NCBI GenBank assembly: GCA_036172245.1
Contig: JAYWIR010000005.1
Coordinates: 3,472,001-3,536,000 of the forward strand
Reading direction: 5' to 3'
Length of the DNA: 64,000 nucleotides
DNA from: Raillietiella orientalis
Taxonomy: Eukaryota
Position 1 is the stretch's first letter, and the number at the start of each line of letters is the position of its first letter. This document shows, piece by piece, positions 1 to 53,558 of this stretch. The translations under genes and the position numbers were made by a program. The notes under the pieces are model-generated. The model was not told the origin of the DNA and did no database searches. It saw nothing but the letters and a program-made list of their open reading frames with translations.

Positions 1-2630
1 TCATATCAGCAGATGACACGAATCAGAAGGGAAACCTACGCGTTGTGGAAGAAGCCATAGTAACGGTTTCCAGGGTATCCGGGCAGGAGAAATTATTCTC
101 CTGTACTCTCACACCTTACAAAGAATCTCATGTTCCATCACTTCTGCTCAAAGAAGAAGAAGAAGGAAAGAGGCAAATTCTTTGATTACATACAAGATGC
201 AATGATGTCTGTCTGTCTTGACGTCTTCATTTGGACGCATTATCTAGGACAGTTTTGTAAGCAACAAAATAAGATTGAACGCTTCCACCCATCCTTTAAA
301 GGTAAATTTGCCAACGGTACATTCCGAGTATATTAAAGACTAGTTGGAAGTAATGGAAAGGTACAGATGAGAGGCGAAAGGTGGACCTTGACACGTTCCA
401 CAGCTCGCATCAGACGCATCTGCAGGAGGTGCTCCAAATGCACTCCTCCTTCAGACAGCTCCTTCATCTCGTTGAACAGGAGATCGGGGTACAGCGTCCA
501 CACGACGTCATGGCGTTTCATTTTGCCAGGACGAAGCTTGGAACAGGAGGACACGTTCGTGTTCATTTAATACACGAAGAAACCCCGCTTCCGGCCATCG
601 ATTCTCATAATCTGAGTGGTACGCTTGCTTACTAACCAACTGGATGGAAACATCAACCTCTCCTGGACAGGTTTTCGTGTCCTCCGCCTCTTCAATATGG
701 CGTAAGTCCTGTGTGTTCTTCATGCCACTCAGAAACCAAAACGCCTCCATTCGTTGATCCGATCCACCTGCAAGAATTTCATCCCAAGTTTACAAGTGTG
801 GATCAACTGACAATCAGTGACACAAGAATGTGCTCCTCGGAATCAAGAAAATGCATCAGAAGACATTGGAATTGGTGAAGAAGACGTCGGGACAGATTTC
901 CAGAATCCGCCCCTCGGCAGCCTTTCCGGATTTCCAAAACAAGTTACTTCACATTCACTTGAACACCCAATCACACATGCATACGAGAATGTGCTACCCG
1001 CATAGCCTCAGCAAGTCTTTGGGCTGTAGCATTAAAATCACGAGTCTCCGTTTCCGAGTCCTCGTGAGCGTCCGCATGGACATCCATGAATGTTTTTGTC
1101 TTTGTAAAGAACTGAATATAGGGCAATCAATTATACACTGCACATTTCGGTATCACATCCACGGCGAACTATCCTTAGCATTTTGGGGAATGGATTTCCG
1201 TGAGTTTCTCTTCTGCAGTATGCAATTCCGGTAACTCGTCAAATCACTTTTGGTCACCTCTTGGTCTGCTGAGCTCAGGTGAGACATCCAACATCTATGG
1301 GCATTCAGGACTGTCTGTATACCGAGCTTGATAAGATATGGTGTGGCAAAAACTGCTAGCAACGTTTGGATGACGACAGAGTGTATGGGTGGATGGTAAT
1401 GCGAGGGAGAAACACCTCGGTGACCAATGTCATAAGGAATTTCGAAAACCGTGTCGGTTACGATGCACCGAAGACCAGAATGCGACTCACAACACTCAAT
1501 GGTGTCACTGCTTACGATTTCTCCTAAAGCAAAATGGAAATAGGACTGCCCAAAACGTACAGAATGCTTAGTTCAAAGGGAAAAACGATGTCGGAATGTA
1601 CCACAGCTGCGCAACACCCAATTATACGTCCGTTATGCATGGTGCTTCGTCCTAACGTTCATTTTTTTCCAATGTTCAAATTCCTCTACGAAAATGGAAC
1701 AGTAGATTACCATTTACCCCATTTTGAAATAAACAACAAATAATCTATTGAAAAAATCAGAAATGCCAAGTACAGTTTTAGAAATGAAATGACTTCCTTG
1801 AAATAACATGAAATTATGAAGCAATCATTACCTATAACTTGCCTTCCTACTCTATCAACCTAAGCATGATTGATGTATTGGACATAGTTGTAGTGATTGC
1901 CACATTGTCAATATTGTCATTTCATCTCCTGATGTGGAGAACAAAGTTCGTCAAGCAATGATCTGACATGAGATGCAGCTGCCGTTTTAGACCGACGTTT
2001 GCTCTGACTGCAAGATTGATCTCCAACCTGCATCCCTGCCTGTTGTGTAGGTGGATGAATTAGTTGGCGACGAGTAAGCGACCACGCTCGTATGAAAAGT
2101 GTCTCTCGACCACAATACAATCGAATGCATGATATGACTTTGCCTTGATAAGGACGGTTCTCGATCAGGCATCATCTTGTCTCTCTTCGTTCCCTGGTGA
2201 GTGTTCTCACCACTAGAGTCTGTCGGAGTTTTCCACTATTCAATTCTTCACTACCATGAGTAGAGTTTCTCGAGAGAGCTCGGAAGCAGTGGGTCAAGAG
2301 AGGTGAACGGTCTGAGGCGGCTATCTGCCAAAAACGAATTTTGTTTCTTCATAAGGTTCACAGGGACGAGACGTCCTTTGGCTCGTCCATACTTTTCGTC
2401 TTCTTTGGGGAGTGGGAGACAAGGATGGCTCACCATCACTTCTGAATCCTCTAGTTAATAATACTGTCTTTATTGTGCGCCCCAAATCGCTGATCTCTGG
2501 ATACAACAAATGCGGAAAAGAAAGGGTTTTTATAGCATCCATTTTTGTCCTTCGAGTTAGAAAATCTTCCGGATGAGCACTGAGCATAGAATTTATTGGC
2601 AGTTGGCAATGGACGCGAGTCGCAGTTTGT

Positions 2631-4552
2631 TTGGAACTACACTGCACTACACCTTGCTTCAAAGAGAACTACTACCTTGCTGTTCAAAGAGAACATGAAA
2701 AAGTGGTTAGGCTACTTTTAAAGTGTGGAGCTAATGTTAATGCTCAAGATGAGTATGGTAGTACTGTACTACGCATTGCAGTTGTACTAGCACATGAAAA
2801 GGTGATTAAGGTGCTTTTAGCATGTGGAGCTAACATTCATGCTCAAGATAAGGATGGTCAAACTTCACTACACTGTGCTGTTAGAGTAGGATGTGAAAAA
2901 GTGGTTAGGCTACTTTTAGGGTGTGGAGCTAACATTCATGCTCAACACAAGGATGGTAAAATGGCCTTATGCTTTGCTGTTGAAAAAGGATGTTCAGTTA
3001 TTATTAAACATATTTTAAAGCATTGTCTTGATGTGAATAACAAAAGTAAGAGGAGTGCTCTTAAGATTGCAGTCCTTGGCCATGGGAAAGAGTATGGCAA
3101 GATTGTTGAAACTGCTTCAGTATGGTTTTAATGTCAATCCTGATGATGTAAATAATTGTGAATTCCTGCATTTTGCTGTTGGTAAAGGATGTTCGAAAAT
3201 TGTTAAAAAAACTACGAAAGTACGCTACTGATGCTAACATGCCAAACAACTTGGCATGGAGTTATACGCCTTTGCATGTGCAGCTGATAATAAATACAGG
3301 AGGAGGTTGCCAAACTGTTGATTAGAAATGGGGCTGATGTAAATGCTAAAAGCAGAGGTGGTTTGATGCCAATATTTTTTGCTGTTCGTAATTCCGATTG
3401 GGAAATTACCAAGCTACTTCTAACTAATAAGGCTAATGTAAAAGATAATCCTCAACTACTGTATGTTGCTGCTCCACAAGGGTGCAGAGAAGTTGTTGAA
3501 GCCCTTTTGCAACATGGTACTATTTTCGATACTAGTGATGAACATATAAAAACGGCATTGCATTTTACTGCTTCAGGAGAGAAATTTCCTTATTTCAACG
3601 TTAAGGGAGAAATTGCGAAATTGCTTTTGAGTATAGGAGCTAATATAAATGCTAAAACTAATGAGGGTACGACACCCTTTCATGAAGCTGCTCAACAAGG
3701 TTGTCCAGGAGTTGTTGAGGTTCTCTTGGAATTTGGAGCCATAGTTGATTTGAAAGATGAAAGTGGTAGGACAGCACTTCACATGGCTTCTAAAGGAGGA
3801 TATGAGAAGATTGTTGCCATTCTTCTAGATCATGGCTCTGATATTAACATCCCCTGTAAAAATAATTATACAGCACTTGATTTTCTATGAATGGTATCAG
3901 AAATCTTGAGCAGCTACCCTACAATGATGACCCTATGATGGATGTAGATGATGATTACTTAACTGAAGCTCTTGGTTATTCGTGTGAAACAATTACTGAA
4001 TTTCTTATGCACCACATACTTAAGATGAAAACTGCAAATTTGTATGTAAATGGAAGAAATTTACAATTACTTCATAGTGACTCTCTAGCTGAAATAAGCC
4101 ATTTTGAGAGTTTATGTAAGGAAGAAATGAAGTGCCTGAAGAGTGAGAAGCTTGGTAATTCTAACGCCTCATTTTATGACATCTTGACAAAAAATATGGA
4201 CCAATTAACAATCCTCTTGGGAAATGAAGATATAGTACAAGTCTTGAGATTGGACGATTATAAAATGAACTTTCCAACATACGCCAGTATGATGAATAAC
4301 CGTTTCAGGAAGGGTGCAAAAAGGAGGGAATTGCTAGAGCAACTCTACAAAAATCGGCACTTCTTCCCTGTGTTATCTCATGACTGTGCTGAAAAGGTAC
4401 CTTGCTATCTAAGCAACGAAGATTTAAGAATTTTAGTAGTTGCTTATCAGCCTACTTATGCTGGTGGGCTTGATGGTACTATTGAGAATGTGGCAGCCAA
4501 TTCAAGTATGTCCAAAACGTCAGGCTTGCTTCGTAATTTCTTGTTATTTTAA
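2631..4552 (+). pseudogene. Ankyrin-repeat protein with C-terminal PRANC/F-box-like domain, frameshifted and apparently 5'-incomplete
   Basis: ORFs 2631-3131 and 3318-3890 carry many ankyrin repeats (GANVNAQDEYGSTVLRIAV, GQTSLHCAV, GTTPFHEAA, GRTALHMAS). An intervening frame (~3112-3280) reads LLQYGFNVN...EFLHFAVGKG...YTPLHV. ORF 3887-4552 has PRANC-like CKEEMKCLK..FYDIL..FPTYASM..R..KG..RRELL..CYLSNEDL. At least 3 frameshifts; no introns seen. Confidence 0.85.
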
Positions 4553-17277: not shown

Positions 17278-18200
17278 CTTTGCGCCAGGGCGTTTATTTA
17301 AAACTCTTCTATACGTTTGTGGAACGAGACTTACCACCGCGAACACAACATTGGATCTGCCGGGTCGCCGGTACGTAGACCGCCTTGACTCTTCTCGGCA
17401 GCGGATGGGGATAAATAAAAAAAATAAGAAAAATAAGAAAAAATTAAAAAAATGAATATTTTGGAAGGCAGGTTACGGATCACTGTGCTCTGATAGGAGG
17501 GTCCATCCTTCCCAGGATGCCGTCGCGGTCCATCTGCATTCTACTCAGGTGGGACCATCGGATTGCAATTCGCAGGAAACGGACTGCAAACTTGATGGCG
17601 CCCCTTGCGTTGCTTCCTAAGTTGGCATCGCTCCATGCAGCCACAATCCCTCGGATGCAGCAAAGTGCTGCCAGAGCTGCGGCTGGTCGCATGAAGAGAA
17701 GCCGAAAAAAGTTTCTGGAGGGATTGCCAATCGGCATCCAGAGGGTCGTCGAAAGAATTTCTCAAAGGTGTCGGAAGGCAACGCAGTCCACATCCAGGTG
17801 CGGAAGGAATTCCCGTTTCCCGCATCTGGAACAGTTGGGGTTCACCTTCCCCAGCGTCCAGTGGCGGCGGCGCGCGCTGTAGGAGAGACCGTGGTGCAAC
17901 AGTAGGAGTTTCCCGACTCTTGTCACCTCAGGAAAAAGATGCTTGTTTTATTTAATACCAAGAGGTACTTCAGTTCATCCGTCGGGATGCCAAGCAGCTC
18001 TCCCCATCTCTGTGGTCCACGTGGAAGGACGCTCGAGGCTGTGGCGTCCGCCAGCTGTCCTATGGTTTCACCATTCATCGACTTCTCTCTGCATGCGATC
18101 TCGCAGGAGACGTGGGCATCCGGCTGCTATTTACCGCCCTTCTTAGAAAGGGCATCGACTTGACAAGGGGGATCGTCTCCGCCCACGTGCTTCCGCCGGC
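17278..18200 (-). mobile_element. Element N: 3' part of a C/S-type LINE inserted into O
   Basis: RSTWAETIPL...AAALAALCCIRGIVAAWSD...GILGRMDPP. 3' UTR with ctgccg..cggcag stem, and AATAAA at ~17293-17298. Confidence 0.8.
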
Positions 18201-18859
18201 TCTACTGTTGCAGTATTGGGGACTCCCCTGCAACGCCCGCCGACACCACTGGACCTGGGGAGCGGTCGACCCCAACTGCGTTAGGTGTTGGGAACGGGAG
18301 TCCCTCCCCCACCTCCTCGTTGATTGCGTAGGCCTTCGGCCCCTTTGGTTCCGCTTTGCCGCGGACATCGGTATCCCCTGCAGCAACCCCAGGGACGCTC
18401 TAAAAGCCCTCTTCGTTGCCGACGCCCTTCGGCCAGCGGCCTTGATAGCAGCCTTGTGCTGCCTCCGCGTAATCTTCGCCGGATGGAGCAAGGCTTCGGG
18501 AAGACCACGCGCCAAGGGTGCCATCCAGGGCGCCGCCCACTTCCTGAGGAGGACGTCGCGATGGTCCCACCTGGATCCGCGAATACAAGAAGAGCTTTCG
18601 GCATCCTGTGAAGGATGCAGCGGTCCCAGCAGCAACAATGATCCCTTTCCGTACCCTCCCACTTTTTCTTTTTTTTTGTTTTGTTTTTTTTTGTTTTTCC
18701 CCCTTCCCCCTGCTGCCGTGGTGGACCGTTCCGGTCTGCGAACCGGTGACCCGGCAGGCTCTGTGTTTCTTCGTGCGTGGCTGGAGCATTGTTCCAGCCA
18801 CAGCATGTCTTTGTTAAAGTTTGTTTTTCAATAAACGCCCAGACGAAACCCGGGTGAAA
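18201..18859 (+). mobile_element. Element Q: 5'-truncated 3' end of a G-type LINE
   Basis: QYWGLPCNARRHHWTWGAVDPNCVRC..LPHLLVDC is nearly the same as G. The 3' UTR matches G and ends AATAAACG...cccgggtgaaa. Confidence 0.88.
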
Positions 18860-20190
18860 ATCGAATGCCTTGTGCAAGTCGACTGCGACCGCGGTGCACG
18901 GCGTGCGGGTGCGACGCGGGACACGACAAAGCGACATACTGAGTTTCCTGCTCTTTAGCACCTATTTCGAATTGATGCTGGAGCGTACAGGGACACTGGC
19001 TTCCCAGTCGCGCGTATGTCTTGGCACGCTTGCCGTAAGCATACGTGGACGATATTCTCCTGCTCCTCCACCCATATCTATCCCGGCATGAGCATTCAAA
19101 GGCTTTTTGGAATTGCTCATTCGCGTGACGGGCCTGCTGGCTAACAGGCTGAATTCGTCCGCAATTCCATTTTGTGCGGCGTGGACAGGGCGATCGGACT
19201 CTGTTTTTCGTTTGGACGCCTACGGACCGATGCCTAATATACCTGGGCGTTATGTTGGGTAAGTTCTCCTCCGATCGTCTCCAGAAAGCAATGCATGTGC
19301 TAGGCTCGTTCTAAAGGCATGGATTCTGGTTTGCGGTTTGGAACACTTTCGTGGCATTCCTTGGTCCCCTTGTCTTTTTGCTTGTCCCCAGGCATATAGC
19401 ATCAGAAAGCAGAAAAAGTATTTTCTGGATGTCTCTCTAGGGAAAAGGGAAATCCTCAATGCACCTGGAGGACTTAGGCCCTGGGACGGCGGCTCAGTCG
19501 GTCCAACGCTGGGGCAAATGGCTGCGATTTCGAACACTTGCCCTCGTGACAAACTTCCGAAGCACTGCCTGGTACTGTTACTCCAGTTTTGAAGACTTGC
19601 TTTCGTGGCAAATCTCTGGAGAACCATCGGATGCCAAAGTGCTCGTCTTCTCGTTCAGCAATTTACTGGCAGCGTTGGACTCTCATCCTTCCTTGCGGGC
19701 ATTCCACGCATTTTCCTCCACTGAGGACTGACCTGAGACAGGTGGCCACGCTGGAGAGGGAAAAACGATGGATCTCTTGTCGTTTTGCGAGCGGAAATGC
19801 GGGGAAGTGCCAAGTTGCAGGAAACCGTTTGCACATGGGTGGGAATCTATGAGCCAAGCGCGGAGCAGTTGGGAAGTTTCCTGTACACGCGTAACTACAA
19901 CTAAACGCTCCGAGGGATCCCGGAAGTTCCCGCGAAGAGTGAATGGGCAAGCAGAACCCCTTCTCGCCTCCGTGATGCCCTCCTTTAGAGAGCACAGAAA
20001 CAGCAGTCTCACGGCTAGATGGGAAACTTCTGTGGAGATCTCCGGAAGGAGAAAATGACTGGGCGAGTAGAAAATGGGCCAGCTCCGAAACTCTGTGTCC
20101 TCGATTGCTCGACCTCGTAAACTTTTGCGTTGCAGGGTGCTACTGGGTATTGCGGAAGATCTGCCAGTGTCCCAGTGCTCAAACGACGCC
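18860..20190 (+). mobile_element. Element R: old, highly degraded RT/ORF2 fragment with a short inverted piece (18860-18893, antisense AVAVDLHKAFD)
   Basis: VHGVRVRRGTRQSDILSFLLFSTYFEL from 18894, followed by decayed homology to ORF2. The right boundary is approximate. Confidence 0.6.
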
Positions 20191-20199
20191 GAGACACCC

Positions 20200-21989
20200 T
20201 CACCCTCCCTTTGAAATGGCCGAAGTCGGTAGGAGAATTCTTCGATCTGCTCAGCCGCGGGACCGAACTGCAGGTTAACAGGGCGAATTCGTTGGTGGTG
20301 CCAGTAGGTGCGGCTTGGGCAGGGCAGCAGGAATGGGTCCGTCTGGGGATTTCCACGGCGAGGTGCCTCAAGTACCTTGGTGTGCCATTGGGGGACTACT
20401 CCCCTGTGGAAGCGTGGTCCAGCTGCCTTCAAAAAGTTGAGACGGCGATCAGCCCGTTCCTGGAAGGCAAGTTCCACTTGCCGGAACGGGCCGCGGTTTG
20501 CAACGCTTTTGCGGCCCCCATCCTCTGCCCCTTGCTTTTTCTTTGCCCCGCCCCCAGAGAATGTAAAAAGAGGACAAAGGACCTCCTCCGCATAGCTCTT
20601 TGGGGCAAGGGGAGGCCCCGAGTCCATTTGAAGGACTTGTGAGCTCCGCGTCGGGACGGCGGTCTTGGCCTCTTGACGCTGGAGCGCGTGGAAATCCAGC
20701 TGCGGTGGCGAACCCTCACCATCGCAGCGAAGATGTGGAGCACCCCTTGGTGCATTCCTGCCCGCCTCCTTGCCAGGCGTGTGTCCCGCTGCGAAGGACT
20801 GGCGTCGTTTCTTCTGTGCCCTGGCCGGAAGATTCGTAGATGCGGCCTAATGCTCGGGCGCATGGCAACCCTGGCGAAGGAGAACGGCTGGATGGTTTGT
20901 GGCCCCGTTAACTCCTCCGCCTGGCTGGAGGAGACTGCTGGCACCTGGGCCAAGCAAAACCAGAGGCGTGAAGATCCAATGAACTGCATGCGAATCGGCC
21001 CATACGCCAACCGCACCCTGCGGGAAATACTCGAATTTCTCCTTAGACGCAGGTGGGCGGAGACGACTCCCCTTGCCACGGCGATGCCCTGCCTCCGAAG
21101 GGCGCTTCACGACCGCCAGAAGTCGAGGTGGCAAGTCTCCTGCCGGATTGCAGGCAGGGAGAAGATGTTAAGCGGCTGGACCACAGGAGAACTGGCGGAC
21201 GCCACGACCCCGAGCGTCCAGCCGCGAGGATTGACGAGATGGGGCAAGCTGCTCGCCATCCCTACGGATATGCTGAAGTGGCCCCCGGTACTTAAGGAAT
21301 CCAGAATACTGCCCCTTAAGTGGCAAGAGACGGCGTTGCTACTGTTGCACTGGGGTCTACCCTGCAACGCGCGCCGCTTCCACTGGACGAGGGGAGCTGT
21401 GGATCCTGCGTGTGCCAAATGCGGGGAGCATGAGTCGCTCCCCTACCTTATTGTGGATTGTGCTGCCCTCCGACCCCTTTGGGAACGGTTCGGGACGACC
21501 CTAGGGCTCCCTACGGGCAGCATCCCCAGAGACGCTCTTCGGCCCCTCTTCGTGAAGGAAGCCCTGCAGCCAGCCGCAGCCATCGCAGCTTTGTGCTGCG
21601 TCCGAGGCATCGTGGCGGCATGGAGCGACTTCAACAACGAAGGAGTGTGTCCACACGCGAGGGATGTCATCCCATACGCCCAACGCTTCTTGAGGAGAGC
21701 TGCCGGATGGTTCCAACTGGGGAATATGCGGATGGACCTCGAGGGCTTCCTTCGACGGATGGGCCCTCTTCACAGCGAATAGTGATCCCTTCCCTGCTCT
21801 CCAACTTCTTTTTGTTTGTTTATTTTTTATTTTTCTTTTTGTTTTATCCCCATCCCCTTCACTGCTGAGGAACGCTACGCCGGGCTGCGTCTCGGCGTCC
21901 CGGCAGGTCCCGTGCGTATGGCCGTGTGCGGGACCATGTAGCGCGTATGCAGAGTTTTTTAAATAAATCCCCCGGGCGTACCCGGGTCT
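20200..21989 (+). mobile_element. Element S: 3' part of a C/S-type LINE
   Basis: ORFs 20130-20642 (KYLGVPLG) and 20673-21782 (CAKCGEHESLPYLIVDC). Ends AATAAA-cccgggcgtacccggg at 21962-21986. Confidence 0.9.
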
Positions 21990-22457
21990 AAACCCTTTAG
22001 GCTGGCAAGAAGGCCGTCAGGCGTCCGGCTTCCCCTTAGGAGTCGGCCACTTCCGACCCCGAGGTGGAGGCCGGAAGCACAGCTTACATCTCCACCGCAC
22101 CCCGCAAAAAGGCTGGACGAAAGTCCACAAAGCCCCGGAAGATCGTCTCCCCCGACGAAGGGGAAGAGATGGCTTCCGGAAGCGAGGGTGCGATGAGCAA
22201 GAAAAACTCACGGGACTCGTCGCCCGAGAGAATCCCACGCTCCGGCACGGAAAAGATGGAGGCCGAACAGGTGCTTTAGGTGCCTGAAGAGGCCTCCGTC
22301 CCCATGGACATCCCCAACACCTGCCCCGCGGCAGGTGCTGGAACGTCAACAGGCTAAGCGACGACGACAAGAGGCTGGACGTGGCAGCCTCTCTGGCATC
22401 CTTCGACCTGGAGCTGCTGCAGAAGATCCACGTGATCTCCTCAGATCAAACCCAGAT
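21990..22457 (+). mobile_element. Element T (left part): ORF1 end and endonuclease start of a B/H-like LINE, host of S and A'
   Basis: Homologous to B 33480-34025. Reads CWNVNRLSDDDKRLDVAASLASFDLELLQKIHVISSDQ. Confidence 0.85.
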
Positions 22458-25400
22458 TTCTCATCCGGTCACGCCGGGGCGTTTATTTCATATAAATTCA
22501 ACAGAAACAATTATATAAAATAAACCAGTTGGGGACCATGCCCCTAACCGACGACGGCACAAGTATCAAGAGTACATTACTAGCACGCAGGCCAGAATAA
22601 CATAACGGTTTGTGGGAACTGGGAAAACAAACAAACAAATACAAAATAAAAAGAAATCAACGGGGACAAGGGTCTTTGGGATCGCTCTGGTTCTTTCCGG
22701 TATAATAGTAATGGCACCGGTATTTTAGCAGAGTGAGCGGGGAAGGGGTATGGGTGGGCTTCAGGACGTAGTGGTCACCGGATTAAGCCGTTCCTAAAAG
22801 TGTGTAAACCGGCGGTGGATGCCGGCGATGTCCTCTTTGACCTCGTCACGAAGATGAGACCACCTAGCAGCGTTTTTCATGGATTCTGCTGCAAACCGGT
22901 GAGCCTCCCTTCGCTGCGCTGACAACTCCAGGGCGTAGAGGGCCTCCACGATGGCGCGAATGCAACACATGGTTGCGACAATCGCGCCTACCGAAAATCC
23001 ATTGCTCCTGAAGAAGCGCCGCAGCACATCAATGGCAGTGCCTCCCTGCGGCAGGATGGCTGAAATCAGCCTTCGCCACAGTTCACGGAGGTCACCGCAG
23101 TCTATCAAGAGGTGCGGAAAAGACTCGATCTCACCGCACCTCAAACAGTTTGGCGGAGCAGCTCCTCCGGAAACGATGCTTCGCTGCCGATTACAGTGGA
23201 AGCCCCAGTGTAAAAAGAGCAGCACATCTTGTTTCCACTTCAAGGGGAACACGGAGCTGTCCAAACAAACGGGGGGGACCACTATCACTTCGGGGGGTAC
23301 AATTAAATGTTCACTCCACCGAAGCAGGCCATTCGCCCGATTACGAGGAGTGGCAGCTTAGACCAGCTCCTTTGTCGTCCAGCAGCCGAGGAGCTTACTG
23401 ACTCCCGCTATTGAGCAGAACTCCCATTTCGCCGGTAGGCAACTGTCGTTGCTTGCCCTGAGGGCAGACAGCGCTGCGGCGAGCGGTGTGGCGGCCAGAC
23501 GATCCGACATCTTCTTGTCCTGCATGACTTCGCCCATTGGATGACTGAGGAGAAGTCGCAGGCGCCGAAGATCTTCCGGGCGCGTTCCTTCGGAAGCTGC
23601 CCACGATGAAAAAGATTCCTGCCGCCATGCATTAATGTTCATGGGGCGGCAGGAGATCCAGCATTGGGCTTCCAGCAGAGAGGACAGCTGCCTCAGCGGG
23701 AAGCCAAACCCTATTATGGTGTGCCGAAAGTGGGGCAGCAACGAAAGCAGTCCCTCGCTTCTTGTGCAGCGCCTCAGTATAAGTCGTGCGGGTAAGCACC
23801 ACGGCGTACACCACAGCTTGGCACACAGCCGCAGCATTCAAAACTGCACCTGCAGCTCGATGCTTTTTAAGTCTAGGGTGCCCAAGCCCGCATCCTGACG
23901 TGGCGCCACCAAGTCTTTAAGTCTTACGCGGGATCTTGCAGCGCCCCACAATGTTTTGCGTAGAAGGTGCTGCGCCCAGACTTTGACTTCCTGGGGGGGT
24001 GGACAAACAAAAAACAGGGGACGGAGGAGGGAAGCAACGAAGGTGTTCCAGATGCTGGCTCGTTCCGGCAAGACGAACTCGCCTCCTGAGAACGGGCCAA
24101 GTGCACGCTCTGCCTTCCGAAGGCAGTCCGACCACGCTTCTGAGATGCAGAAGTCGCCCAACGGCACGCCAAGGTACCTTAGGTACCTGCCCGTGGGGAT
24201 CCCCAGGCGGATCCAGTCGGACTGCCCCTCCAAAGTTGCTCCAACCGGAACAACCAGGCTCTTGCTCCTGTTGACGCTCACGCCCGCACCGCGACGGATC
24301 AACTCAAAGAAATCTTCAAGCGACGCCGCCGGGGTGGACAAGGGCAACAGAAGAAGCAGGTCGTCGGCATAGGCTGCCACGGCCGGCGTACCTGAAGAGG
24401 AGCTCGGCAGGTTCGCTAGCGTCAGCCTGTAAGCCTCCAGAACCATTTCAAAATAGATGCTAAAGAGCAGCGGGCTCAAGCTATCGCCCTGCCTAATTCC
24501 TCGCCTAACAGGCACGCCGTACACGTGACAGCCACTGAAAACAATGGATGTAATCGCGTGGCGCCAGCAGGAGCGCAAGTATGCCAACAGGGATGCCGGG
24601 AGGCCCAGACGTTCCAAGAGCTCAAGAAGAAGGTTTTGGTTCACGCAATCGGAAGCTTTGTGCAAATCGACTGCAACCGCCAAGGCTCCCGGTGTTTCCC
24701 TTTGCGACCCGCGCCTCCGTAGGTGAGAGATCGAAGGCGTCGCTTCCGAACGACGATCCATCGCCACGCGATGCTGCAATTGCAGTCATGTGCGGATGAA
24801 TAAGAGGTTCGCGTCCATGGACCGCCCGGGAACAGCGTAGGTCTGCTCCAGACCTACCAAAGACTCCGCGATCCTCCCCATCCGCGCCACCCAAAGTTTC
24901 GAAAATAACTTGACGTCCGAATTCACTACGGTGATCGGACGCCAATTGTTCAGTTGGCGCAAATCTCCGCCTTTCGGCAGGAGACGCACCTTCGCTGAGT
25001 GAAACGAGGCGGAAACATCGCCCGCGTCTCGCATCAGCGACGAGAGTTGGAGCACCATTGGGATGAGCTCCGCCGCAAAGCACTGGAAGAATTCTGCGGA
25101 TAGTCTATCCTCGCATGGCTCTTTTCGTCTCTTGAGTCCCGAGATGGCCGAGGAAATTTCCTCTGCCGTGAAGGGCTCATCCAGACGCGCGCGTTCCTCC
25201 TCGTCTACAACACGTGCATCGATCGGCAGAAGCAGCTCGGAGAGACTGCATACCGTTGATGCCTCTGCATACAGAGAAGAGTAATAGCGCCTGACTATCC
25301 GTCGCACGTCGGCTGGAGCCGAGCATTCCCGGTCCTGGTCGTCGAGCAGAACTGTCGCCCCTGACTGCCAGACCTGGCGCTCGGCCTTGGCCTTGTTCTC

Positions 25401-25560
25401 GGATAATCGACCAACGTCCGCGTGCCTGGAGTAGGAGCGGGCCTGCAGAAAATCCCTGCTGTTGGCTACACCCTCTCCGAAGCCGCGCGGAAGCTGGTGC
25501 AAGGGAAACCGGCAGCAAAACTCGCGGACCGATCTTTTCACATCGTCCCAGTCGGCGAGC
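22458..25560 (-). mobile_element. Element A': A-type LINE, ORF2 (RT to C-terminus) with stops, plus 3' UTR
   Basis: ORFs 24786-25541, 23838-24779 (YADD), 23358-23837 and 22794-23288 are collinear with A ORF2. Terminal hairpin at 22458-22487. Confidence 0.92.
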
Positions 25561-26821
25561 GAGAGCGGACGGGTTTTTGTTTCGCTCGTGAGCGTTTGTG
25601 GTTTTATTTTTTCTTTTTTTTTCTTGGTGTATCAGTAAATTTTGTGGCAGCAATGCCTGGGACCACCACCAGTGATAAGGAGGGGGCGACGTCTATGTCG
25701 CCCCCTGAATCAATGGATGTGGGGGCAACCGCCCCCACAGAAGCGTCTCCCTCGTTATTGAAAAGCTGGAGTTCCGTGGCTGCGGCGCCAAATAAGCGGC
25801 TGCGGCTGAGTTGAAAGCCTACCTGGAGAAGGGGTACGATCACCCTCTACTCTACAAGGTAGGCAACCTTTACTCCTTTAAGAGTGCACGCGCTTTCTCG
25901 AAAGCGATGCACTCTCTCAAAGTTCCACAGGAGGAGCTCCTGGCGATGACCATCAGGAGCGGTGGACAGTACGTGTAAGTGATTTGCAAAGAAGCAAGTC
26001 TTGCCCAGCGTCTGCTCAGTACATTTGTTCCTTTGAGGAATCGCCGGCTCCTCTCCATCACGGACGGTAGGTCCATCGTGATCCACCTCCTCTGAATCAC
26101 ATTTCGGATGGTCAAAGAGGCTGTCTGAAAGGAATTGCTAAAATTTGGCACCGTCCACGCGTCATGAAAAAAGCCGACTCCGTTTTAAGAATACGGCCGA
26201 CTCGCATGTGGTCTGGTTGCTGCCCGAGTCACAGTCCGCGAGAATTGCTCCTTACCTAACAAGCTGGAAGTCGACGGCGAGTCCGTTGACATTTGGTATG
26301 TTGGGTAGTCGCATTTCTGCGGGCATTCCAGCACTTCGGGTTACCTGAAAAATAGGTGCCCTTACTTGCAGTGCAAGCAATGCAACCAACCCGGGCACAC
26401 TCTTTCGGTGTGCCCGCAAAATGAAATCCGCGTCGCGTCCGCACGGAATGCGAAGAAGCGCGCTGCCAAAAAACTAAGAATTCAGGCAGCCCGAGAGAGA
26501 GCCGCCGCTAAAAAGACAACTATCGTGCCCCAGGTGAAGGTCAGCTCCGAGATCCCAGGAAACTCGGACAAGGTCGAGGAGAACGGTCAGGAACCTGGAT
26601 GGCAGGTAGTATAATCCAAGAGGCAGAAAAGCCTCAAGGAACCAAAAAAAAATGTCGCGAAACGCAGCGAGAATTTGCCGCGTCGCGAAAAGATCAAACG
26701 CTGCTCTGTCGTCATCAAGCGCATTTCTGCGGTCGAACAGAGCGGCAAAGTTGCACTCGTCGCTGCCGACTCTCAGCCCTCCGGCAAATTAATGCCGGAG
26801 GCTATCGACCCGGCGGTGGCG
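25561..26821 (+). mobile_element. Element F: 5' end and degraded ORF1 of a B-type LINE
   Basis: Starts gagagcggacggg. MPGTTTSDKEG...AYLEKGY..LYKVGNLYS and CKQCNQPGHTLSVC knuckle. Many stops. Confidence 0.85.
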
Positions 26822-28380
26822 TCCGCTTTTTTTGGAGATTTTTCTTTCCTCCTCTCCACAACCTTCCATTCGCCTTCGCGATTTTCGGAGGCTTCCGCGA
26901 CAGTAGTTGCGGAAACCTCCGGGATTTTCGCTGCGTTCTCTGGGGGCGTTGCTTTCGCTACGCCTTTAAAAGGCGGCAACGGAGTCACCTTCTTGACAGT
27001 CGGGAGATTGCTCCTCTCCTGCCGAGTCGGCGATGGGGCGACTGCATGCAGCGTGCTTTTGGTCGTTGCGACGCTGCTTTTTACGGCTTTCGTAGCCTTT
27101 GCAGTGGGGCCTGCGCTGCAGTGGGGCTGTCCGGAACTCGGAAGGGACAACGGAACGGGGCAAGAAGTCTTCGCACTGTTGCGATCTTCCTGTTTTCCTA
27201 CCTTTTTCTCCAGGGTGTTACGGAGATTTCCTGGTTCCAGGTTCGGAAAGGTGCCCGCGAGTTCGGCAGAGAGGGAAGGCACGGCACGCGTCAAACCCTC
27301 GCCCCCCTTTTTAATTGGCTTTCCCGCCGTGACTTTCCCCTTTCGGGGCGTTGCGGGCGGGGATGCTTTCTTTTTATCCGCGGATCGCTCGTGGTTTTTT
27401 TCGAGTTTTTGCGGACGACGTTTTTTATTTGCCGCTGCGGCTTTTCGTGCAGTGGTCTCTTGAACCCGACGAATTTCCGCTGCGGCTCTTTTTCTTGCAA
27501 GTACCGGGCACTTTTTGATTTCGTGCCCGGAATCTTTGCAATAGCGGCATCTTGGAGAGGGGCACTTTTTAATTCGGTGCCCCTCCTTGCCGCACTGCTC
27601 GTACGCGCGAGTCTGGCCTATGAACCACAGGTGAACGACCGTGGCGTTCATTTGCAACTGCTCAGGCACAACACGTCTGTTCGCGACGGTGATCCGCGCG
27701 GAGGCTTGTCCAATGTGGACAGAGGGTAAATCCTTTAGAGGATTTGGCCTCCTCCACAGAGGGTGCACGGTGGCGAACTTCTCCTGCACACTTACGACAT
27801 CGCGGTCGGAGATTTCTGGTTCGATGTCGCACAATTGAACGACAAAAGAGTCGTCCATCGCGGTAGGAAGGACTTCCTCGCCATTGATTTTCAACGGCGT
27901 ACGGAGAAGGCGCTGCACAAGTGCTGCGTTCTTGCACCGAATCTTCGTATATTCCATCCTGCCAGCAGGCATTATGGTAAGGAGTTCCTCCTCTCGAACG
28001 CCTATCCGGACGAGCTGATCATTGAGCTCATGACCGATTCTCCCGTTAAGTGGCCCACTGACCTTATAACGGAGTGCAGGCATGTATCCTGATGACACAT
28101 ATGCCTGGAACTCCGCATCGCAGGGTCCTGGTCTTTGGGAGGTAACGACGGCGTAACTCCTCACCGGGGGCGAGGAAACCATTACGGAGGATGCGGCCAC
28201 TTCAAGTGCAGCTGAAGTGCATCCAGTGGCTTGCTCTTCCACACTATCCTGTGTACTGGCTATGTTGCACTATGCTACTTGGCAGATTGCACAGGAACAC
28301 ACAAGTGCGAGCAAAAACGCAGGAACAAAGTTGCCCGATCGTTGGCGCGGATAGACGCGGAAACACGTCTGCACTGTACG
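26822..28380 (-). mobile_element. Element A'': near-identical copy of the 5' end and ORF1 of A
   Basis: ORF 26773-28242 almost matches A ORF1. It has the same 5' end and the same junction with the host (cgtacagtgcagacgtg / agcccgggatat). Confidence 0.93.
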
Positions 28381-29117
28381 AGCCCGGGATATCGAACGGA
28401 TCTCCGGTGGGCGGCTGTTGTGGCGTTGCGGCACCGCGAAATCAAGCGGTGTCGCCTTCCTGCTTCGGCCAGCCATCGAGACCGCAATAAAGGACGTTCG
28501 GTTCGATGACGCAGGTCGCGTCGGTCAGCTGACTCTCAGCTGGTCCGACTCTATCGACCTGGTCGTCACCAACCTATACGCTCCTAGCGGAAACAACGTG
28601 TTGAGGGCGAAGGCAAGAAGGGAATTCTACCTTGCCCTGAGACGCGATTGGCTGACCGATGCAGGAGTTCGCAAAGCGCACCTGATCGCAGGTGATTTCA
28701 ACCTGCGCCTGCTTTCAGGTGCGCCGGATACACTGAACGACCGTGTCAACGAGTTGTGCGCAGAAATGAACACGCGCAACTTGTTGGCCGGGGACACGGC
28801 CATGGAAAGCAGCATCGATCACGTGTACCTTGATCAGCACCTATGCTCTTGGGTGGGCAGGCGCGGCAAGGTACCATCCGTGCTGTCGGACCATGGTCGG
28901 ATCATGTTCGAAGTGCGTCCGCGCGACAAGGGCCCCCACTCGTCAGCGTGGCGTCTGCCAGGGGACTGGCTGAAGTTTCCCGACGCGGCGGAGCACCTCC
29001 GCGCGTTTATTCGGAGCTTCAGAATTCAGACACTTCAGGACTGGGACCGCTTCAAGCGGTCGGTCCAGGAGTTCTGCGACCAGTTCCCCCTGCATCGCCT
29101 ACCTGCGGGATTTGGGG
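28381..29117 (+). mobile_element. Endonuclease segment near-identical to B 39973-40698
   Basis: WRCGTAKSSGVAFLL..NLYAP..IAGDFN..IDHVY..SDH. Confidence 0.92.
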
Positions 29118-32100: not shown

Positions 32101-34025
32101 TTCCTTAAAAAGGTCCCAGTCCTGGAGATTCCCTAGCGTCGAGCGGACGTGTCTTTTCGTTGCTCCTGAGTTTCATTTCCGTTGGTGCTTGTGCGTGGTG
32201 TGGGTGGAGGATTAGGCAGCGATGCCTGATACCACCACCGGTGAGGATCCAGGGGCGATGACCTCATTGCCCCCGGAGCAGATGGAGGTGGGGGCTCCCG
32301 CATCAGTGGTGGTGCCGCCAGCACTGATGCGCCTCCGGCCCTACCCAGGGCTTGGAACGCCGTGGCTGCGGCACCTCCGCCAGCGGCTTTGGCGGAAATG
32401 CGCGCTTACCTGGAGGAGGGGTATAACCCATCCCTTCTATATAAGGTAGGCGGTCTATATTCTCCCGAGAACGCGCGCGCCTTCTCACAGGCGATGCGCG
32501 TTCTCGGCGTACAGAAAGAGGAGCTTCTGGCTATGTCCGTCAGAAGCGGGGGTCAATTTGTGAAAGTTATCTGCAAGGAGGCAACTCTTGCGCAGAGACT
32601 TCTGCGAACCCCCATAATTATGGGCAGCCGGAGGCTTCTCCCAATTACTAAAGACCGGTCGGTGATCATTCACCTGACCGGTATCACGTTCCGGATGACG
32701 AAGGAGGCCGTCCGGAACGAATTCGAAAAATTCGCAACTGTCCACGCGCTGTGGGGTAAACCTACTCCTTTTGTCGATTACGACGGGGTGCTAGGCGGCC
32801 TGGGTGCAGCGCGAGTGACGGTTCGCGAGGGATGTGAGGTTCCCCACAAACTCATCGTCAACGGTGAATTCGTTGACGTGTGGTACGTGGGGAAACCCTA
32901 GTTTTGCGGCTGCTGCAGCAGGTTTGGTCACCTTAAAATGAGGTGTCCGAGCGTGCAGTGCTAGCAATGCAAACAAGCGGGGCACACCCGTCTGGTGTGC
33001 CCCTAAAACACAGTCCGCGTCGTGTCCGCGAAAAACGCGAAAAAGCGCGCGGCTAAAAAGAGGAAAAAGCTGGCAGGTCGTGCTGCTGCTAAGGAGGTCA
33101 CTTCCGCCACCAAGGCGAAGGCCAGCCCCGAGACTCCGGCGAAAAACGCCGAAAAGGTCGAGGGCGAGGGTCAAGAGCCAGGGTGGCAGAAGGCCGATCC
33201 CAAGAAAAACTCCCATAAGAAGGGAAAGAACGTGGCGAAACGGAGCGAAACCGCTCTGCGCCGCGAAAAAATTAAAAGCTGCTGCGTCGTTGTAGAGCAG
33301 ATTCCCGCCATCGACGAATGCGGCGCTAAAGAACTCGCTGCTGCCCCTGCTCAACCCTCCGTTGACAAAGTCAACAAGGAGGGGAGCGAGGCGGCGGCGT
33401 CCGTCATCGAGCCCACGCTCGATGACGTCGCCTTCGAGCGCGACGCGGAAGCTGACTGCCACGTTGCAGCCGGTTGCCCCCAAGGCTGGCAAGAAGGCCG
33501 TCAGGTGTCGGGCTTCCCCTCAGGAGTCGGCCACTTCCGACCCCGAGGTGAAGGCCGGAAACACAGCATCCATCTCCGCGGCACCCCGCAAAAAGGCAAG
33601 ACGAAAGTTCACAATGCCCCGGAAGATCGTCTCCCCCGCCGAAGGGGAAGAGATGGCTTCCGGTAGCGAGGGTGCCATGAGCGTTTGAAACTCCCGGGAC
33701 CCGTCGCCCGAGAGAATTCCACGCTCGGACACGGAGGGGATGGTGGAGATGGAGGCCGAACAGGTATCCCAGGCGCCTGAAGAGGCCTCCGTCCTCTTAC
33801 CGATGGACCTGTCCGACACCTGCCCCGCGGCAGGTGCCGCGACGCCACTTTCCCAGCCATAATGCCGGGAAAGGCCTCTCGCCGTCGACTTCTGATCGCC
33901 TGTTGGAACGTGAACGGGCTAAGCGACGACGGCAAGGGGCGTGACGTGGCCGCCACCCTGGCATCCTTCGACCTGGTGCTGCTGCAGGAGATCCACGTGA
34001 TCTCCGCAGATCAAGCCCGGGAGAT

Positions 34026-34055
34026 TTCTCACCCGGTCACGCCGGGGCGTTTATT
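34026..34055 (-). terminator. AATAAA followed by a CCCGG-N4/5-CCGGG hairpin forming the element 3' end; representative copy
   Basis: Found at about 12 element ends (14343, 15930, 17278, 18830, 21962, 22458, 29118, 34026, 43578, 43949, 53559, 61212); degenerate in the older copies. Confidence 0.75.
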
Positions 34056-34378
34056 CCATATAACATAACCAAAAAAAGCAATTATACAAAATAAACCAGT
34101 TGGGAACCAAACTCCCAACCGACGACTGAACAAGAATGAAGAGAATATTGCTGGCACGCAGGCCAGAGTAACAGTTTTGTGAACGGTGTGGGGGGGCAGG
34201 GAACACAAAGAAACCAAAATAAAATAAAAACAATGAATAAGGAGGACGGGATAAGGGTCTTTGGGATCGCTCTGGAAGACACGGGGATAAAAGCATGGGC
34301 ACCGGAAATTTTACCGAGCGAACGGGGACGGGGTATGGGTGGGCGAGAGGTCGCAGGGGTCACCGGATTACGCCGTTC

Positions 34379-37300
34379 TCAAATGTGTGTAAACCGGCGA
34401 TGTATGCCGGTGATGTCCTCATTCACCTTGTCACGAAGATGAGACCACCTTGAAGCCTTCTCCATGAATTGAGCTGCAAGCAGGTGAGCCTCCCTTCGCT
34501 GCGATGACAACTCCAGGGCGTAGCGGGCCTTCACGATGGCGCGAACGCAACACATGGTTGCGACAATCGCGCCAACCGAAAGTCCATTTCTGCTGAAGAA
34601 GCGCCGCAGCACATCAATGGCAGTGCCTCCTTGTGGCATGATGGCCGAAGTGAGCCTTCGCCACAGTTCCCGGAGGTTACCGCAGTCCAACAAAAGGTGC
34701 GGAAAAGACTCGATCTCTCCGCACCTTAAACAGTTTGGCAAAGCAGCTCCCCCGGAAACGATGCTTCGCTGCCTATTACAGTGAAATGCACAATGTAAAA
34801 AGAGCAGCACATCTTGTTTCCACTTAAGGGGGAACACGGAGCTCTCCAAACAAACGGGGGGAACCACTATCTCTCCGGGGGGCACACTTAAATGTTCGCT
34901 CCACCGAAGCAGTCCCTTCGCCCGATTCCGAGGTGTGGCGGCTTGCACCAGCTCCTTTGTCGTCCAGCTGCCGAGGAGCTTACTGACTCCCGCTATTTTG
35001 CAGGAGATCTTCCATTCCGCCGGTAGGCAACCGTCGTTGCTTGCCCTGAGGGCAGACAGCGCTGCGGCGAGTGGTGTGGCGGCCAGACGATCCGACAACT
35101 TCTTGTCCTGCATGACTTCGTCCATTTGATGACTGAGGAGAAGTCGCAGGCGTCGAAGATCTTCCGGGCGCGTTCCTTCGGAAGCTGCCCACGATGAAAA
35201 AGATTCCTGCCGCCATGCATTAATGTTCATGGGGCGGCAGAAGATCCAGCTTTGGGCTTCCAGCAGTGAGGACAGCTGCCTCAGCGGGAAGCCAAACCCT
35301 ATTCTGGTGTGCCGAAAGTGGGGTAGCAACGAAAGCAGTCCCTCGCTTCCCGTGCAGCGCCTCAGTATAAGGCGTGCGGGTAAGCACCACGGCGTACACC
35401 ACAGCTTGGCACAGAGCCGCAGCATGCGAAACTGCACCTGCAGTTCGATGCTGTTTAAGTCGAGGATGCCCAAGCCTGCATCCTGACGCGGCGCCACCAA
35501 GTCTCTAAGTCTAACACGGGATCTTGCAGCGCCCCACAACGCTTTGCGTAGAAGGCGCTGCGCCCAGACTTTGACTTCCTGGGGGGGTGGACAAACAAAA
35601 AACAGGGGGCGGAGGAGGGGGGCAACGAAGGTGTTCCAGATGCAGGCCCGTTCCGGCAAGACGAACTCGCCTCCTGAAAACGGGCTAAGTGCACGCTCTG
35701 CCTTCCGAAGGCAGTCCGACCACGCTTCTGAGACGCAGAAGTCGCCCAACGGCACGCCAAGGTACCGGAGGTACCTGCCCGTGGGGATCCCCAGGTCGAT
35801 CCAGTCGGACTGCCCCTCCCACGTCGCACCAACCGGAACAACCATACACTTACTCCTGTTAACGCTCACGCCCGCACCACGACGGATCAACTCAAAGAAA
35901 TCTTCAAGCGACGCTGTCGGGGTGGACATGGGCAACAGGAGAAGCAGGTCGTCGGCATAGGCTGCCACGGCGGGCGTACCTGGACAGGAGCTCGGCAGGT
36001 TGGCTAGCGTCAGCCTGTAAGCCTCCAGCACCAATTCGAAATAGATGCTGAAGAGCAGCGGGCTTAAGCTGTCACCCTGCCTAATTCCTCGTCGTACCGG
36101 CACGCCGTACACGCGACAGCCACTGAAAACAATGGATGTAATCGCGTGGCGCCAGCAGGAGCGCAAGTACGCCAACAGGGATGCCGGAAGACCCAGACGT
36201 TCCAAAAGCTCAAGAAGAAGCTTTTGGGTCACGCAATCGAAAGCTTTGTGCAGATCGACTGCAACCGCCAAGGCTCCCGGTGTCTCCCTTTGCGTCCCGC
36301 GCCTCCGTCGGTGAGAGATCGAAGGCGTCGCTTCCGCACGACGATCCACCGCCACACGATGCTGCAATTGCAGCCATGTGCGGATGAACAAGAGATTCGC
36401 GTCCAAGGACCGCCCTGGATCAGCGTACGTCTGCTCCGGACTTACCAAGGATTCCGCGATCCTACCCATCCGCGCCACCCAAAGTTTCGAGAACAACTTG
36501 ACGTCCGAATTCAATAATGTGATCGGACGCCAGTTGTTCAGTTGGCGCAAATCTCCGCCTTTCGGCAGTAGACGCACCTTCGCTGAGCGAAACGAGGCGG
36601 GGACATCGCGCGAGTCTCGCATCAGCGACGAGAGCTGGAGCACCAGAGGGATGAGCTCCGCCGCAAAACACTGAAAGAATTCCGCGGGGAGCCCATCTTC
36701 GCCTGGCGCTTTTCGTCTCTTGAGCCCCGAGATGGCCGAGGAAATTTCCTCTGCCGTGAAGGGCTCATCAAGACGCGCGCGTTCCTCCTCGTCTACAACA
36801 GGTGCATCAATCGGCAGAAGCAGCCGGGAGAGGCTGCGTTCCGTCGGTGCCTCTGCATACAGAGAAGAGTAATAGCGCCTGACTATCCGTCGCACGTCGG
36901 CTGGAGCCGAGCATTCCCGGTCCTGGTCGTCGAGCAGAACTGTCGCCCCTGACTGCCAGACCTGGCGCTCGGCCTTGGCCTTGTACTCGGATAATCGACC
37001 AACGTCCGCGCGCCTGGAAAAGGAGCGGGCCTGCAGAAAATCTCTGCTGTTGGCTACGCCCTCTCCGAAGCCGCGCGGAAGCTGGTGCAAGTGAAACCGG
37101 CAGCAGAACTCGCGGACCGATCTTTTCAGATCGTCCCAGTCCTCGAGCTCACTTATGGCAAAGCCGAGGAGGTACTGGCGAAGATGCTCAGCCGCCTCCG
37201 GGTGGCTTAGCCAGTCTGCCGGCATCCTCCAAAAACAGTTTGTAGGCCCCTTGCCTGGCGGGAGCAACTCGAACTCGAGCCTGTTGTGGTCTGAAAGCAC

Positions 37301-39855: not shown

Positions 39856-39952
39856 GTTGCACTATGCTACTTGGCAGATTGCACAGGAACACACAAGTGC
39901 GAGCAAAAGCGCAGGAACAAAGTTGCCCGATCGTTGGCGCGGATAGACGCGG

Positions 39953-39972
39953 AAACACGTCTGCACTGTACG
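39953..39972 (-). promoter_or_regulatory. Conserved 5' RGACGTGT motif, putative internal Pol II promoter (DPE-like); representative copy
   Basis: Occurs within ~5-20 nt of the 5' end of L, F, A'', B, A, D, C, H, G and I. Resembles the downstream promoter element of arthropod LINEs. Confidence 0.6.
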
Positions 39973-53543: not shown

Positions 53544-53558
53544 CGTAAAGCTGTCGAT

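Follow-up and report, generated by a model that had tools for sequence, protein, structure and literature searches.

Introduction

Known site-specific long interspersed nuclear elements (LINEs) have their targets in simple repeats, in genes for ribosomal RNA (rRNA) or small RNAs, and in one DNA transposon, with Tx1L in the Tx1D transposon and R1 in 28S rDNA as named examples, and nests made up solely of LINEs act as centromere-like clusters in some algae. In the available portions of the sources, target-specific LINE families with an apurinic/apyrimidinic endonuclease (APE) are assigned to the Tx1 and R1 clades. The accessible text of Craig et al. (PMC8226300) presents Zepp and ZeppL as L1-type LINEs that nest into existing copies, and that of Blanc et al. 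2012 (PMC3446292) describes GC-rich clusters of nested Zepp elements. Here we describe a nest of LINEs in a 64,000-nucleotide stretch of DNA from Raillietiella orientalis (GCA_036172245.1, contig JAYWIR010000005.1, positions 3,472,001 to 3,536,000, forward strand), referred to below as the window; all counts, junctions and identities given here come from this single 64-kb window. Four of the elements, named G, I, G2 and Q and together called the G clade, are probably target-specific LINEs that insert, in antisense orientation, at the codons for reverse transcriptase (RT) motif A in other LINEs. The analysis started from the 3' end of Q, which an original prediction, made from the sequence alone, had singled out.

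Element ends at the motif-A codons

The Q junction joins the following two features.

18200-18859, plus strand: Q, a 5'-truncated 3' fragment of a G-clade LINE, with the C-terminus of open reading frame 2 (ORF2) from about residue 1060, the 3' untranslated region (UTR), AATAAA, a terminal hairpin and a GAAA end
18860-18892, minus strand: J, 33 bases atcgaatgccttgtgcaagtcgactgcgaccgc, with codons for AVAVDLHKAFD

Q represents the final 660 bases of a G-type element, and its coding part matches ORF2 residues 1060-1192 (tblastn). Positions 18197-18859 align with G 54242-53559 at 78.7% identity over 685 columns (blastn), while in a multiple alignment Q is 80.1% identical to G, 70.2% to the sister-lineage element S and 59-63% to elements of the Y-type family; 80% to G versus 70% to S suggests that Q belongs to the G clade. 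Its end reads ...aataaacgcccagacgaaacccgggtgaaa (tail ...CCCGGGTGAAA), in the order AATAAACG, hairpin, GGGTGAAA, with the last base at 18859. An antisense AVAVDLHKAFD had been predicted to follow this 3' end, and it is found there exactly: the reverse complement of J is GCG GTC GCA GTC GAC TTG CAC AAG GCA TTC GAT, and 11/11 residues are identical to residues 573-583 of the ORF2 of ref, an intact element of the window (tblastn). The stretch, which aligns with IISIDAEKAFD of human L1 ORF2p (chain 8uw3_A), we take to be RT motif A with the catalytic aspartate. The first part of J, 18860-18874, is the HKAFD 15-mer and would represent a target duplication; the remainder, 18875-18892, codes for AVAVDL.

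The same 15-mer, or a variant of it, lies beside the ends of the other G-clade elements.

53559-59147, minus strand: G, full-length G-clade LINE with 5' UTR, ORF1, ORF2 (APE, RT) and 3' UTR; stops in ORF2
62750-64000, plus strand: I, 5' part of a G-clade LINE, 92.2% identical to G, continuing past the window edge
52101-53543, minus strand: G2, an older G-clade element represented by its 5' part, 74% identical to both G and I and placed head to tail behind G
59148-61241, plus strand: Y1, host LINE fragment that starts exactly at HKAFD codons (59148-59162) and reaches its own 3' end
61242-62749, minus strand: Y2, second host LINE fragment, starting exactly at HKAFN codons (62735-62749)
53544-53558, plus strand: 15-mer between the 3' end of G and the 5' end of G2, CGTAAAGCTGTCGAT, coding for RKAVD in the same frame

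By tblastn, G covers ORF1 8-255 and ORF2 6-1196, and G2 stops at 52101, where a further LINE, YZ, cuts into it with its 5' end. Y1 (ORF2 from residue 579) adjoins the 5' end of G and Y2 (ORF2 579-1073) that of I, each in the opposite orientation to its neighbour. The 15-mer between G and G2 agrees with the HKAFD 15-mer of Y1 at 11/15 positions, and the probability of at least 11/15 by chance is 1.2e-4. The junctions, written in element orientation, are as follows.

G 5' end: left ...CTGGTCCACGCA; 15-mer ATCGAACGCTTTGTG; right CGCT-CTAGGGCGGACGTG...
I 5' end: left ...CTGGTCCACACA; 15-mer GTTGAACGCCTTGTG; right CGCT-CCAGGGTGGACGTG...
G 3' end / G2 5' end: left ...CCGGGTGAAA; 15-mer ATCGACAGCTTTACG; right TCGG-CTAGAGCGGACGTG...
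Q 3' end: left ...CCGGGTGAAA; 15-mer ATCGAATGCCTTGTG; right CAAGTCGACTGCGACCGC

All three full-length G-clade 5' ends (G, I and G2), which read ...CTAGGGCGGACGTGTTT..., and both 3' ends (G and Q) abut the antisense 15-mer in one phase and one orientation, at four loci. Y-type and RKAVD-type hosts, although of different families, share exactly this phase, and the predicted grouping of Q with the junctions of G and I is borne out, as phase and orientation are identical. The target expected beside G-clade ends is (A/G)T(C/T)GAANGCNTT(G/A)(T/C)G. At G and I the host extends leftward as antisense ORF2 from residue 579 to the C-terminal part (~2.1 and ~1.5 kb), and at Q it extends rightward as antisense AVAVDL for 18 bases. 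Host sequence is retained through the H codon at 5' junctions and from the D codon at 3' junctions, and the overlap is therefore the 15 HKAFD bases plus one ambiguous base on each side, so that 5' and 3' junctions taken together would indicate a target duplication of 15-17 bp.

When the window is scanned for the 15-mer CACAAGGCATTCGAT with at most 3 mismatches allowed, 9 matches appear; 1.65 would be expected, and no shuffle out of 100 gave that many. All but one of the nine lie at RT motif A, the exception (46092, plus strand) being a look-alike in codons for MERLG. For an element end to lie beside one of the approximately 10 motif-A sites in the exact phase and orientation, the chance over 128,000 strand-positions is roughly 1e-4; four of the ten sites are occupied.

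Codons for (L/M)ERLG stand about 31 bases downstream of HKAFD, for instance at 46092-46106, and are nearly the reverse complement of the KAF codons (GAACGCCTTGG). The resulting short inverted repeat is present in ref, S, G and a further element, c46, and is not present in Y-type copies. It was ruled out as a conserved feature of the target, being missing from the Y-type hosts that were hit.

Since G and I stand opposed to each other across Y1 and Y2, a single duplicated junction was considered. It is excluded by the identities on the two sides: over 1247 columns the 5' parts of G and I share 92.2% identity, whereas the hosts Y1 and Y2 share 72.9% over 1469 columns, and in bins of 100 bases the value shifts exactly at the junction, from 69-80% on the host side to 85-97% on the element side. 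G and I are therefore independent insertions: two hosts, old and diverged from each other, each received a young element at an identical base, and the two elements are close relatives. A tree of the 5' 1.25 kb places G, I and G2 in one clade with 100/100 support; S, a second sister-lineage element (S2) and YZ lie outside it without a resolved order, and ref and c46 form another clade.

Surroundings of the Q junction

Q and J are flanked by two further elements.

18894-20229, plus strand: R, old, decayed, 5'-truncated G-like element, from RT motif B (~residue 625)
17343-18199, minus strand: H, 3' part of a Y-type LINE, from ORF2 ~residue 964 to its 3' end, adjoining the truncated 5' end of Q

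The plus strand of R begins at 18894 with VHGVRVRRGTRQSD... and continues from motif B onward with several stops and one frame shift (tblastn). It is 59.6% identical to G 55551-54240 (blastn) and also aligns to S 41637-42950. Q had been predicted to sit in a much older host, which this arrangement does not support, as the decayed RT to its right is R, an old G-like element on the same strand as Q. The 33-mer is not present in the frame of R itself. It retains 11/11 residues while R is heavily decayed, and it is therefore unlikely to be part of the R insertion; for the same reason twin priming of R is an unlikely source of the 33-mer. A single twin-primed element made up of R and H was ruled out by their different decay, and a supposed sense-strand motif A to the left of Q (18155-18170) was ruled out because other copies show homology to this stretch in the C-terminal region of their ORF2. 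Our best guess is that J and H are the remains of one Y-type host that lost ~1.1 kb at the truncated 5' junction of Q.

Beyond each of the two G-clade 3' ends stands the 15-mer, and next to it a second G-like element in head-to-tail arrangement (G-G2 and Q-R). In both pairs the upstream member is the nearer to G, G being 92% identical to I and G2 74% to G, and Q being 80% identical to G and R 61%.

Proposed target and mechanism

The analysis shows where the junctions lie and how they are oriented, that G and I are independent, that the clade exists, and that APE and RT domains are present. The positions of the nicks, a specific endonuclease as the cause, renewed use of the left duplicate and the fragment that hosted Q are inferred. 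The APE endonuclease of the G clade would nick the sense strand of the host ORF2 after GAT (or GATT), that is ...AAG GCN TTC GAT^TGC..., in the duplex ...GTCGACTTGCACAAGGCATTCGATTGCGTG.... The nicked 3' end would then prime complementary DNA (cDNA) synthesis on the element RNA (target-primed reverse transcription), the template presumably ending in AATAAA, a 5-7 bp hairpin and GAAA. A cut of the second strand ~15 bases away, before CAC, would yield the duplication, with the HKAFD codons (15-17 bp) present on both sides of a new copy that runs antisense to its host. The left duplicate would keep its upstream context and could be hit again; this would produce tandem, head-to-tail pairs whose upstream member is the younger (G ahead of G2, Q ahead of R), and the closer relationship of the upstream members to G fits such re-use. 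The Q junction at 18859/18860 would be the 3' junction of an insertion of this kind and the 33-mer a remnant of its host.

Composition of the nest and insertion sites of other families

The region past ~10 kb is a nest made up of retrotransposons that lack long terminal repeats (non-LTR retrotransposons), each within another (tblastn with the ref proteins and self-BLAST). Its GC content is 52-62% from ~10 kb onward, versus 40-46% in four of the first five 2-kb bins. According to the tblastn map, the nested copies of this GC-rich cluster are mostly 5'-truncated, and nearly all flanks within it are other LINEs. The G-like family comprises G, I, G2, Q, R, S and S2; the Y-type family Y1, Y2, YZ, Y4 and H; and the ref-type family ref, its duplicate copy ref-dup, c46 and T. 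Features not yet listed are the following.

34026-39972, minus strand: ref, intact element, with ORF1 at 37951-39861 and ORF2 at 34379-37984
32133-43606, plus strand: S, full-length sister-lineage LINE in two parts (32133-34025 and 39973-43606), split by ref (34026-39972, minus strand)
25560-26825, plus strand: S2, 5' part of another sister-lineage LINE, whose 5' end adjoins ref-dup (minus strand) at ORF2 ~residue 280

The ORF1 of ref carries zf-CCHC (Pfam, 21.6 bits versus a cut-off of 20.8), and its ORF2 carries the endonuclease Exo_endo_phos (Pfam E = 6.9e-11) and the reverse transcriptase RVT_1. Pfam detects RVT_1 in ref, S, G and c46; Exo_endo_phos in G (E = 6.7e-5, 23.2 bits, on a 229-aa piece) falls just below the 24.5 cut-off. 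For ORF1 of G and of I, tblastn shows homology at 31-32%, and the pieces scanned gave no Pfam match. The best relative of ref among solved structures is human L1 ORF2p, with E = 3e-45 for the RT region versus 2e-13 for R2 proteins, and L1 endonuclease chains match the window endonuclease at E = 4e-6. In protein searches the closest public proteins to ref are 27-36% identical (maximum 36%), and many of them carry zf-RVT. On these sequence comparisons, the window elements are APE-type non-LTR retrotransposons of an L1-like kind.

Seven 3' ends were inspected (18859, 53559, 43606, 61241, 29117, 21995 and 34026). Each has AATAAA, a GC-rich hairpin of 5-7 bp and 3-5 further bases, which across families are GAAA, GACAA, CTAAA, GAGAA or TTTAA, and none of the seven has a poly(A) tail or A-run. 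The hairpins were assessed by folding single sequences; that of G shows compensatory changes, both arms being altered with pairing kept.

Other families insert elsewhere. The element ref lies within S at about residue 60 of the S ORF2, with a 12-bp duplication AGCCCGGGA(G/T)AT at 34014-34025 and 39973-39984, and c46, with an 8-bp duplication, lies in sense orientation in YZ at the codons for GDFN, so that these two occupy unrelated sites. S itself stands antisense in the Y-type host YZ at ORF2 residues ~276-281 (the ...LEDWD... codons), with a 10-bp duplication TGGAGATT(C/A)C at 32123-32132 and 43607-43616. The original prediction gave G-type 3' flanks unrelated to motif A as evidence that would count against it; such a flank is found in one relative, S (68-75% identical to G), which is outside the G/I/G2 clade and has a fixed site of its own. 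The S2 junction, likewise antisense, is at the same ORF2 site as that of S, 5 bases apart and in a different host, and S and S2 seem to be a sister grade with their own fixed target, a second specificity. The 3' flanks of Y-type elements differ from one another. The full-length 5' junction of YZ in G2 (52095-52125) and the 3' junction of Y4 in the S duplicate (21990-22015) share the same place near the end of the G-like ORF1, an apparent 13-bp target CCCTYTAAGGCYRG in sense orientation; Y4 and YZ each have their 3' junction at one site and their 5' junction at an unrelated one.

A wider reading, which we put forward only tentatively and think somewhat doubtful, is that an L1-like LINE radiation turned into sequence-specific parasites of other LINEs, in which every lineage has a conserved ORF site of its own to home to. 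For the G clade this would be the motif-A codons, which could not mutate away without destroying the competitor's RT and would thus be a permanent safe harbour; S and S2 would home to the ...LEDWD... codons between endonuclease and RT, and the Y-type elements possibly to the end of the G-like ORF1. The many cut sites of one cluster could then serve as breakpoints whose ends are joined through LINE cDNAs, which would account for mismatched flanks, tandem pairs and the permuted order Q-J-R.

Several further observations concern the nest and its border. The blocks 21999-29117 and 33483-40700 are a segmental duplication of an already nested block (the 5' part of S, ref and the start of the S ORF2), one part being 85-90% identical and another reaching 96.6% over 2293 bases; the nest has therefore had composite pieces copied as DNA. 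Y4 looks mosaic, its first 540 bases (20233-20770) being 78% identical to G and 77% to S, with a 3' part nearest YZ (80%). To the left of the nest, in the part of lower GC content (~40-46% in most bins), 2577-4552 holds open frames with ankyrin repeats (E down to 2.6e-49), followed by a weak, sub-threshold PRANC match (E = 0.003). These frames are possibly a host gene beside the cluster.

Searches for further copies

Rfam gave no match in the window. Among viral contigs the 18-mer of the G 5' end was found at 0 loci, and the 3'-end pattern at 5 loci, all of one unrelated phage-like sequence. Among metagenome contigs the 18-mer was found at 26 loci, all of them by chance, with no homology beyond 19-22 bases. 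One sequencing run contained 9% of the sampled words of 53300-59300; its contigs at 80% likeness were short and mostly less than 90% alike, and among the loose ends and joints listed none was at 53559 or 59147 (186 further loose ends).

Alternative explanations

Our confidence in motif-A specificity is bounded by the single window, by the lack of a matched pair of duplications and by the odd structure at Q, and several points weigh against it. The evidence is confined to 64 kb, in which six motif-A sites are unoccupied. No element within the window has a matching pair of 15-mer duplications, and the predicted 15-bp duplication exactly over H-K-A-F-D stands as the overlap of 5' and 3' junctions (with one ambiguous base on each side) and not as a matching pair. 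G, the only element with both ends present, has flanking 15-mers that agree at 11/15, and the one at its 3' end has CGT AAA, as in G's own motif (CGT AAA GCA TTC GAC), so the two junctions of G may be two cut sites, or G may be recombinant. For an element as young as G, 4/15 differences between flanks need an extra event, for example recombination or the joining of two cut sites. The left flank of Q contains no 15-mer, and its antisense host piece is only 33 bases long, after which the sense-strand, G-like R begins. In addition, the right break of R (...GAAGTCGG, then Y4) and the left break of Q (H ...CCGCCGG, then CTCTACTGTTGCAG) fall at the same coordinate of the alignment to G within ~3 bases, at about ORF2 residue 1058-1060 (window 18197-18200 and 20227-20230). 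The order Q-J-R is therefore a circular permutation of one element, which hints at a permuted or circular origin, and the Q junction may not be an independent insertion. Possible causes are a circularised or tandemly duplicated mosaic unit, a nascent Q cDNA interacting with the neighbouring homologous R, or an assembly error.

The alternative that survives best, though we regard it as unlikely, traces Q, the 33-mer and R back to a single unit [R part + Q part + 33-mer] that had formed a circle, been duplicated in tandem, or been copied through one turn before opening again; or the 33-mer could be a 3' transduction from a source copy at motif A. The Q junction would then repeat an older event and would not be a third hit. 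Besides the shared break and the permuted order, the shortness of the 33-mer with R immediately after it would suit this explanation, as would the occurrence of mosaic elements here, such as Y4 (first 540 bases 78% to G, 3' part Y-like). The two parts differ greatly in their distance to G, however, with the R part 61.0% and the Q part 80.1% identical to G and S showing the opposite pattern (73.7% and 67.8%), and R has several stops and a frame shift whereas the coding part of Q has none. The source copy would, moreover, still have been at motif A in the same phase, so that the target rule holds.

Motif-A specificity of the endonuclease must also be weighed against homology or microhomology between nucleic acids, through read-through RNA pairing with the target or through break repair favouring a conserved stretch. 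Read-through transcripts of copies that occupy identical targets could pair with the target hit next, and such pairing is known for R1-type elements; repair-type joining is also common in the nest, as at Y4 and YZ the sites of the 3' and the 5' junction are unrelated. We nevertheless consider this quite improbable. The element 3' end (...GGGTGAAA) has at most one base in common with the target, and the exact phase is common to Y-type and RKAVD-type hosts. The junctions lie at element termini and are antisense to the host, while recombination between homologous RT genes would yield sense-strand hybrids.

Finally, in a LINE-only region, where nearly all flanks are LINEs and some pairwise coincidences are expected among ~15 junctions, insertions anywhere in neighbouring LINEs could overlap by chance in a few cases, but base and orientation coincide for five ends, distributed over four loci, each with odds of ~1e-4, and other families lie elsewhere (ref at S ORF2 ~residue 60 with a 12-bp duplication, c46 at the YZ GDFN codons with an 8-bp one), making coincidence a very remote explanation.

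Implications

If the G clade is indeed specific for motif A, its fixed target is the coding sequence of the catalytic motif of its rivals, and it would clearly exemplify a transposon lineage that lives as a parasite on others and disables them. The target would then be preserved by purifying selection acting on the rival LINEs. It would also provide a testable mechanism for the growth of LINE-only nests by self-insertion, and its endonuclease would add to the natural nickases a new one that is sequence-specific, its site being a defined stretch of 15 bp. Should the radiation of homing lineages be real, homing would be the nucleotide-level mechanism of self-nesting clusters of the Zepp kind.

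Comparison with known systems

While target-specific APE-type LINEs are already known, the type of target proposed here, RT motif A of other LINEs, appears to be new; the literature searched, with subscription journals mostly outside its reach, held no report of a LINE targeting RT motif A. Like LINEs of the Tx1 and R1 clades, likened here by features and not by RT phylogeny, the G clade combines an APE endonuclease and an RT with insertion in a fixed orientation at a single nucleotide position within a multicopy sequence. It differs from them in that its target is the protein-coding RT motif A of related LINEs, hit antisense. In human L1, target preference is only loose and a poly(A) tail is present. 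Human L1 ORF2p (8uw3, 8sxt and 9k6g; endonuclease 1vyb) resembles the window elements in its RT (E = 3e-45) and endonuclease (E = 4e-6), in the aligned IISIDAEKAFD and, weakly, in a C-terminal Cys/His motif, whereas the window elements end in AATAAA, a short hairpin and GAAA. With Zepp and ZeppL of green algae, likened by description and not by sequence, they have in common that L1-type LINEs form nests with copies inserted into each other; the window elements differ in having no poly(A) tail, and no Zepp appears among the source names of the closest public protein relatives. The portions of PMC8226300 and PMC3446292 available give no nucleotide-level target for Zepp or ZeppL, in contrast to the motif-A codons at which the G-clade ends of this nest are found.

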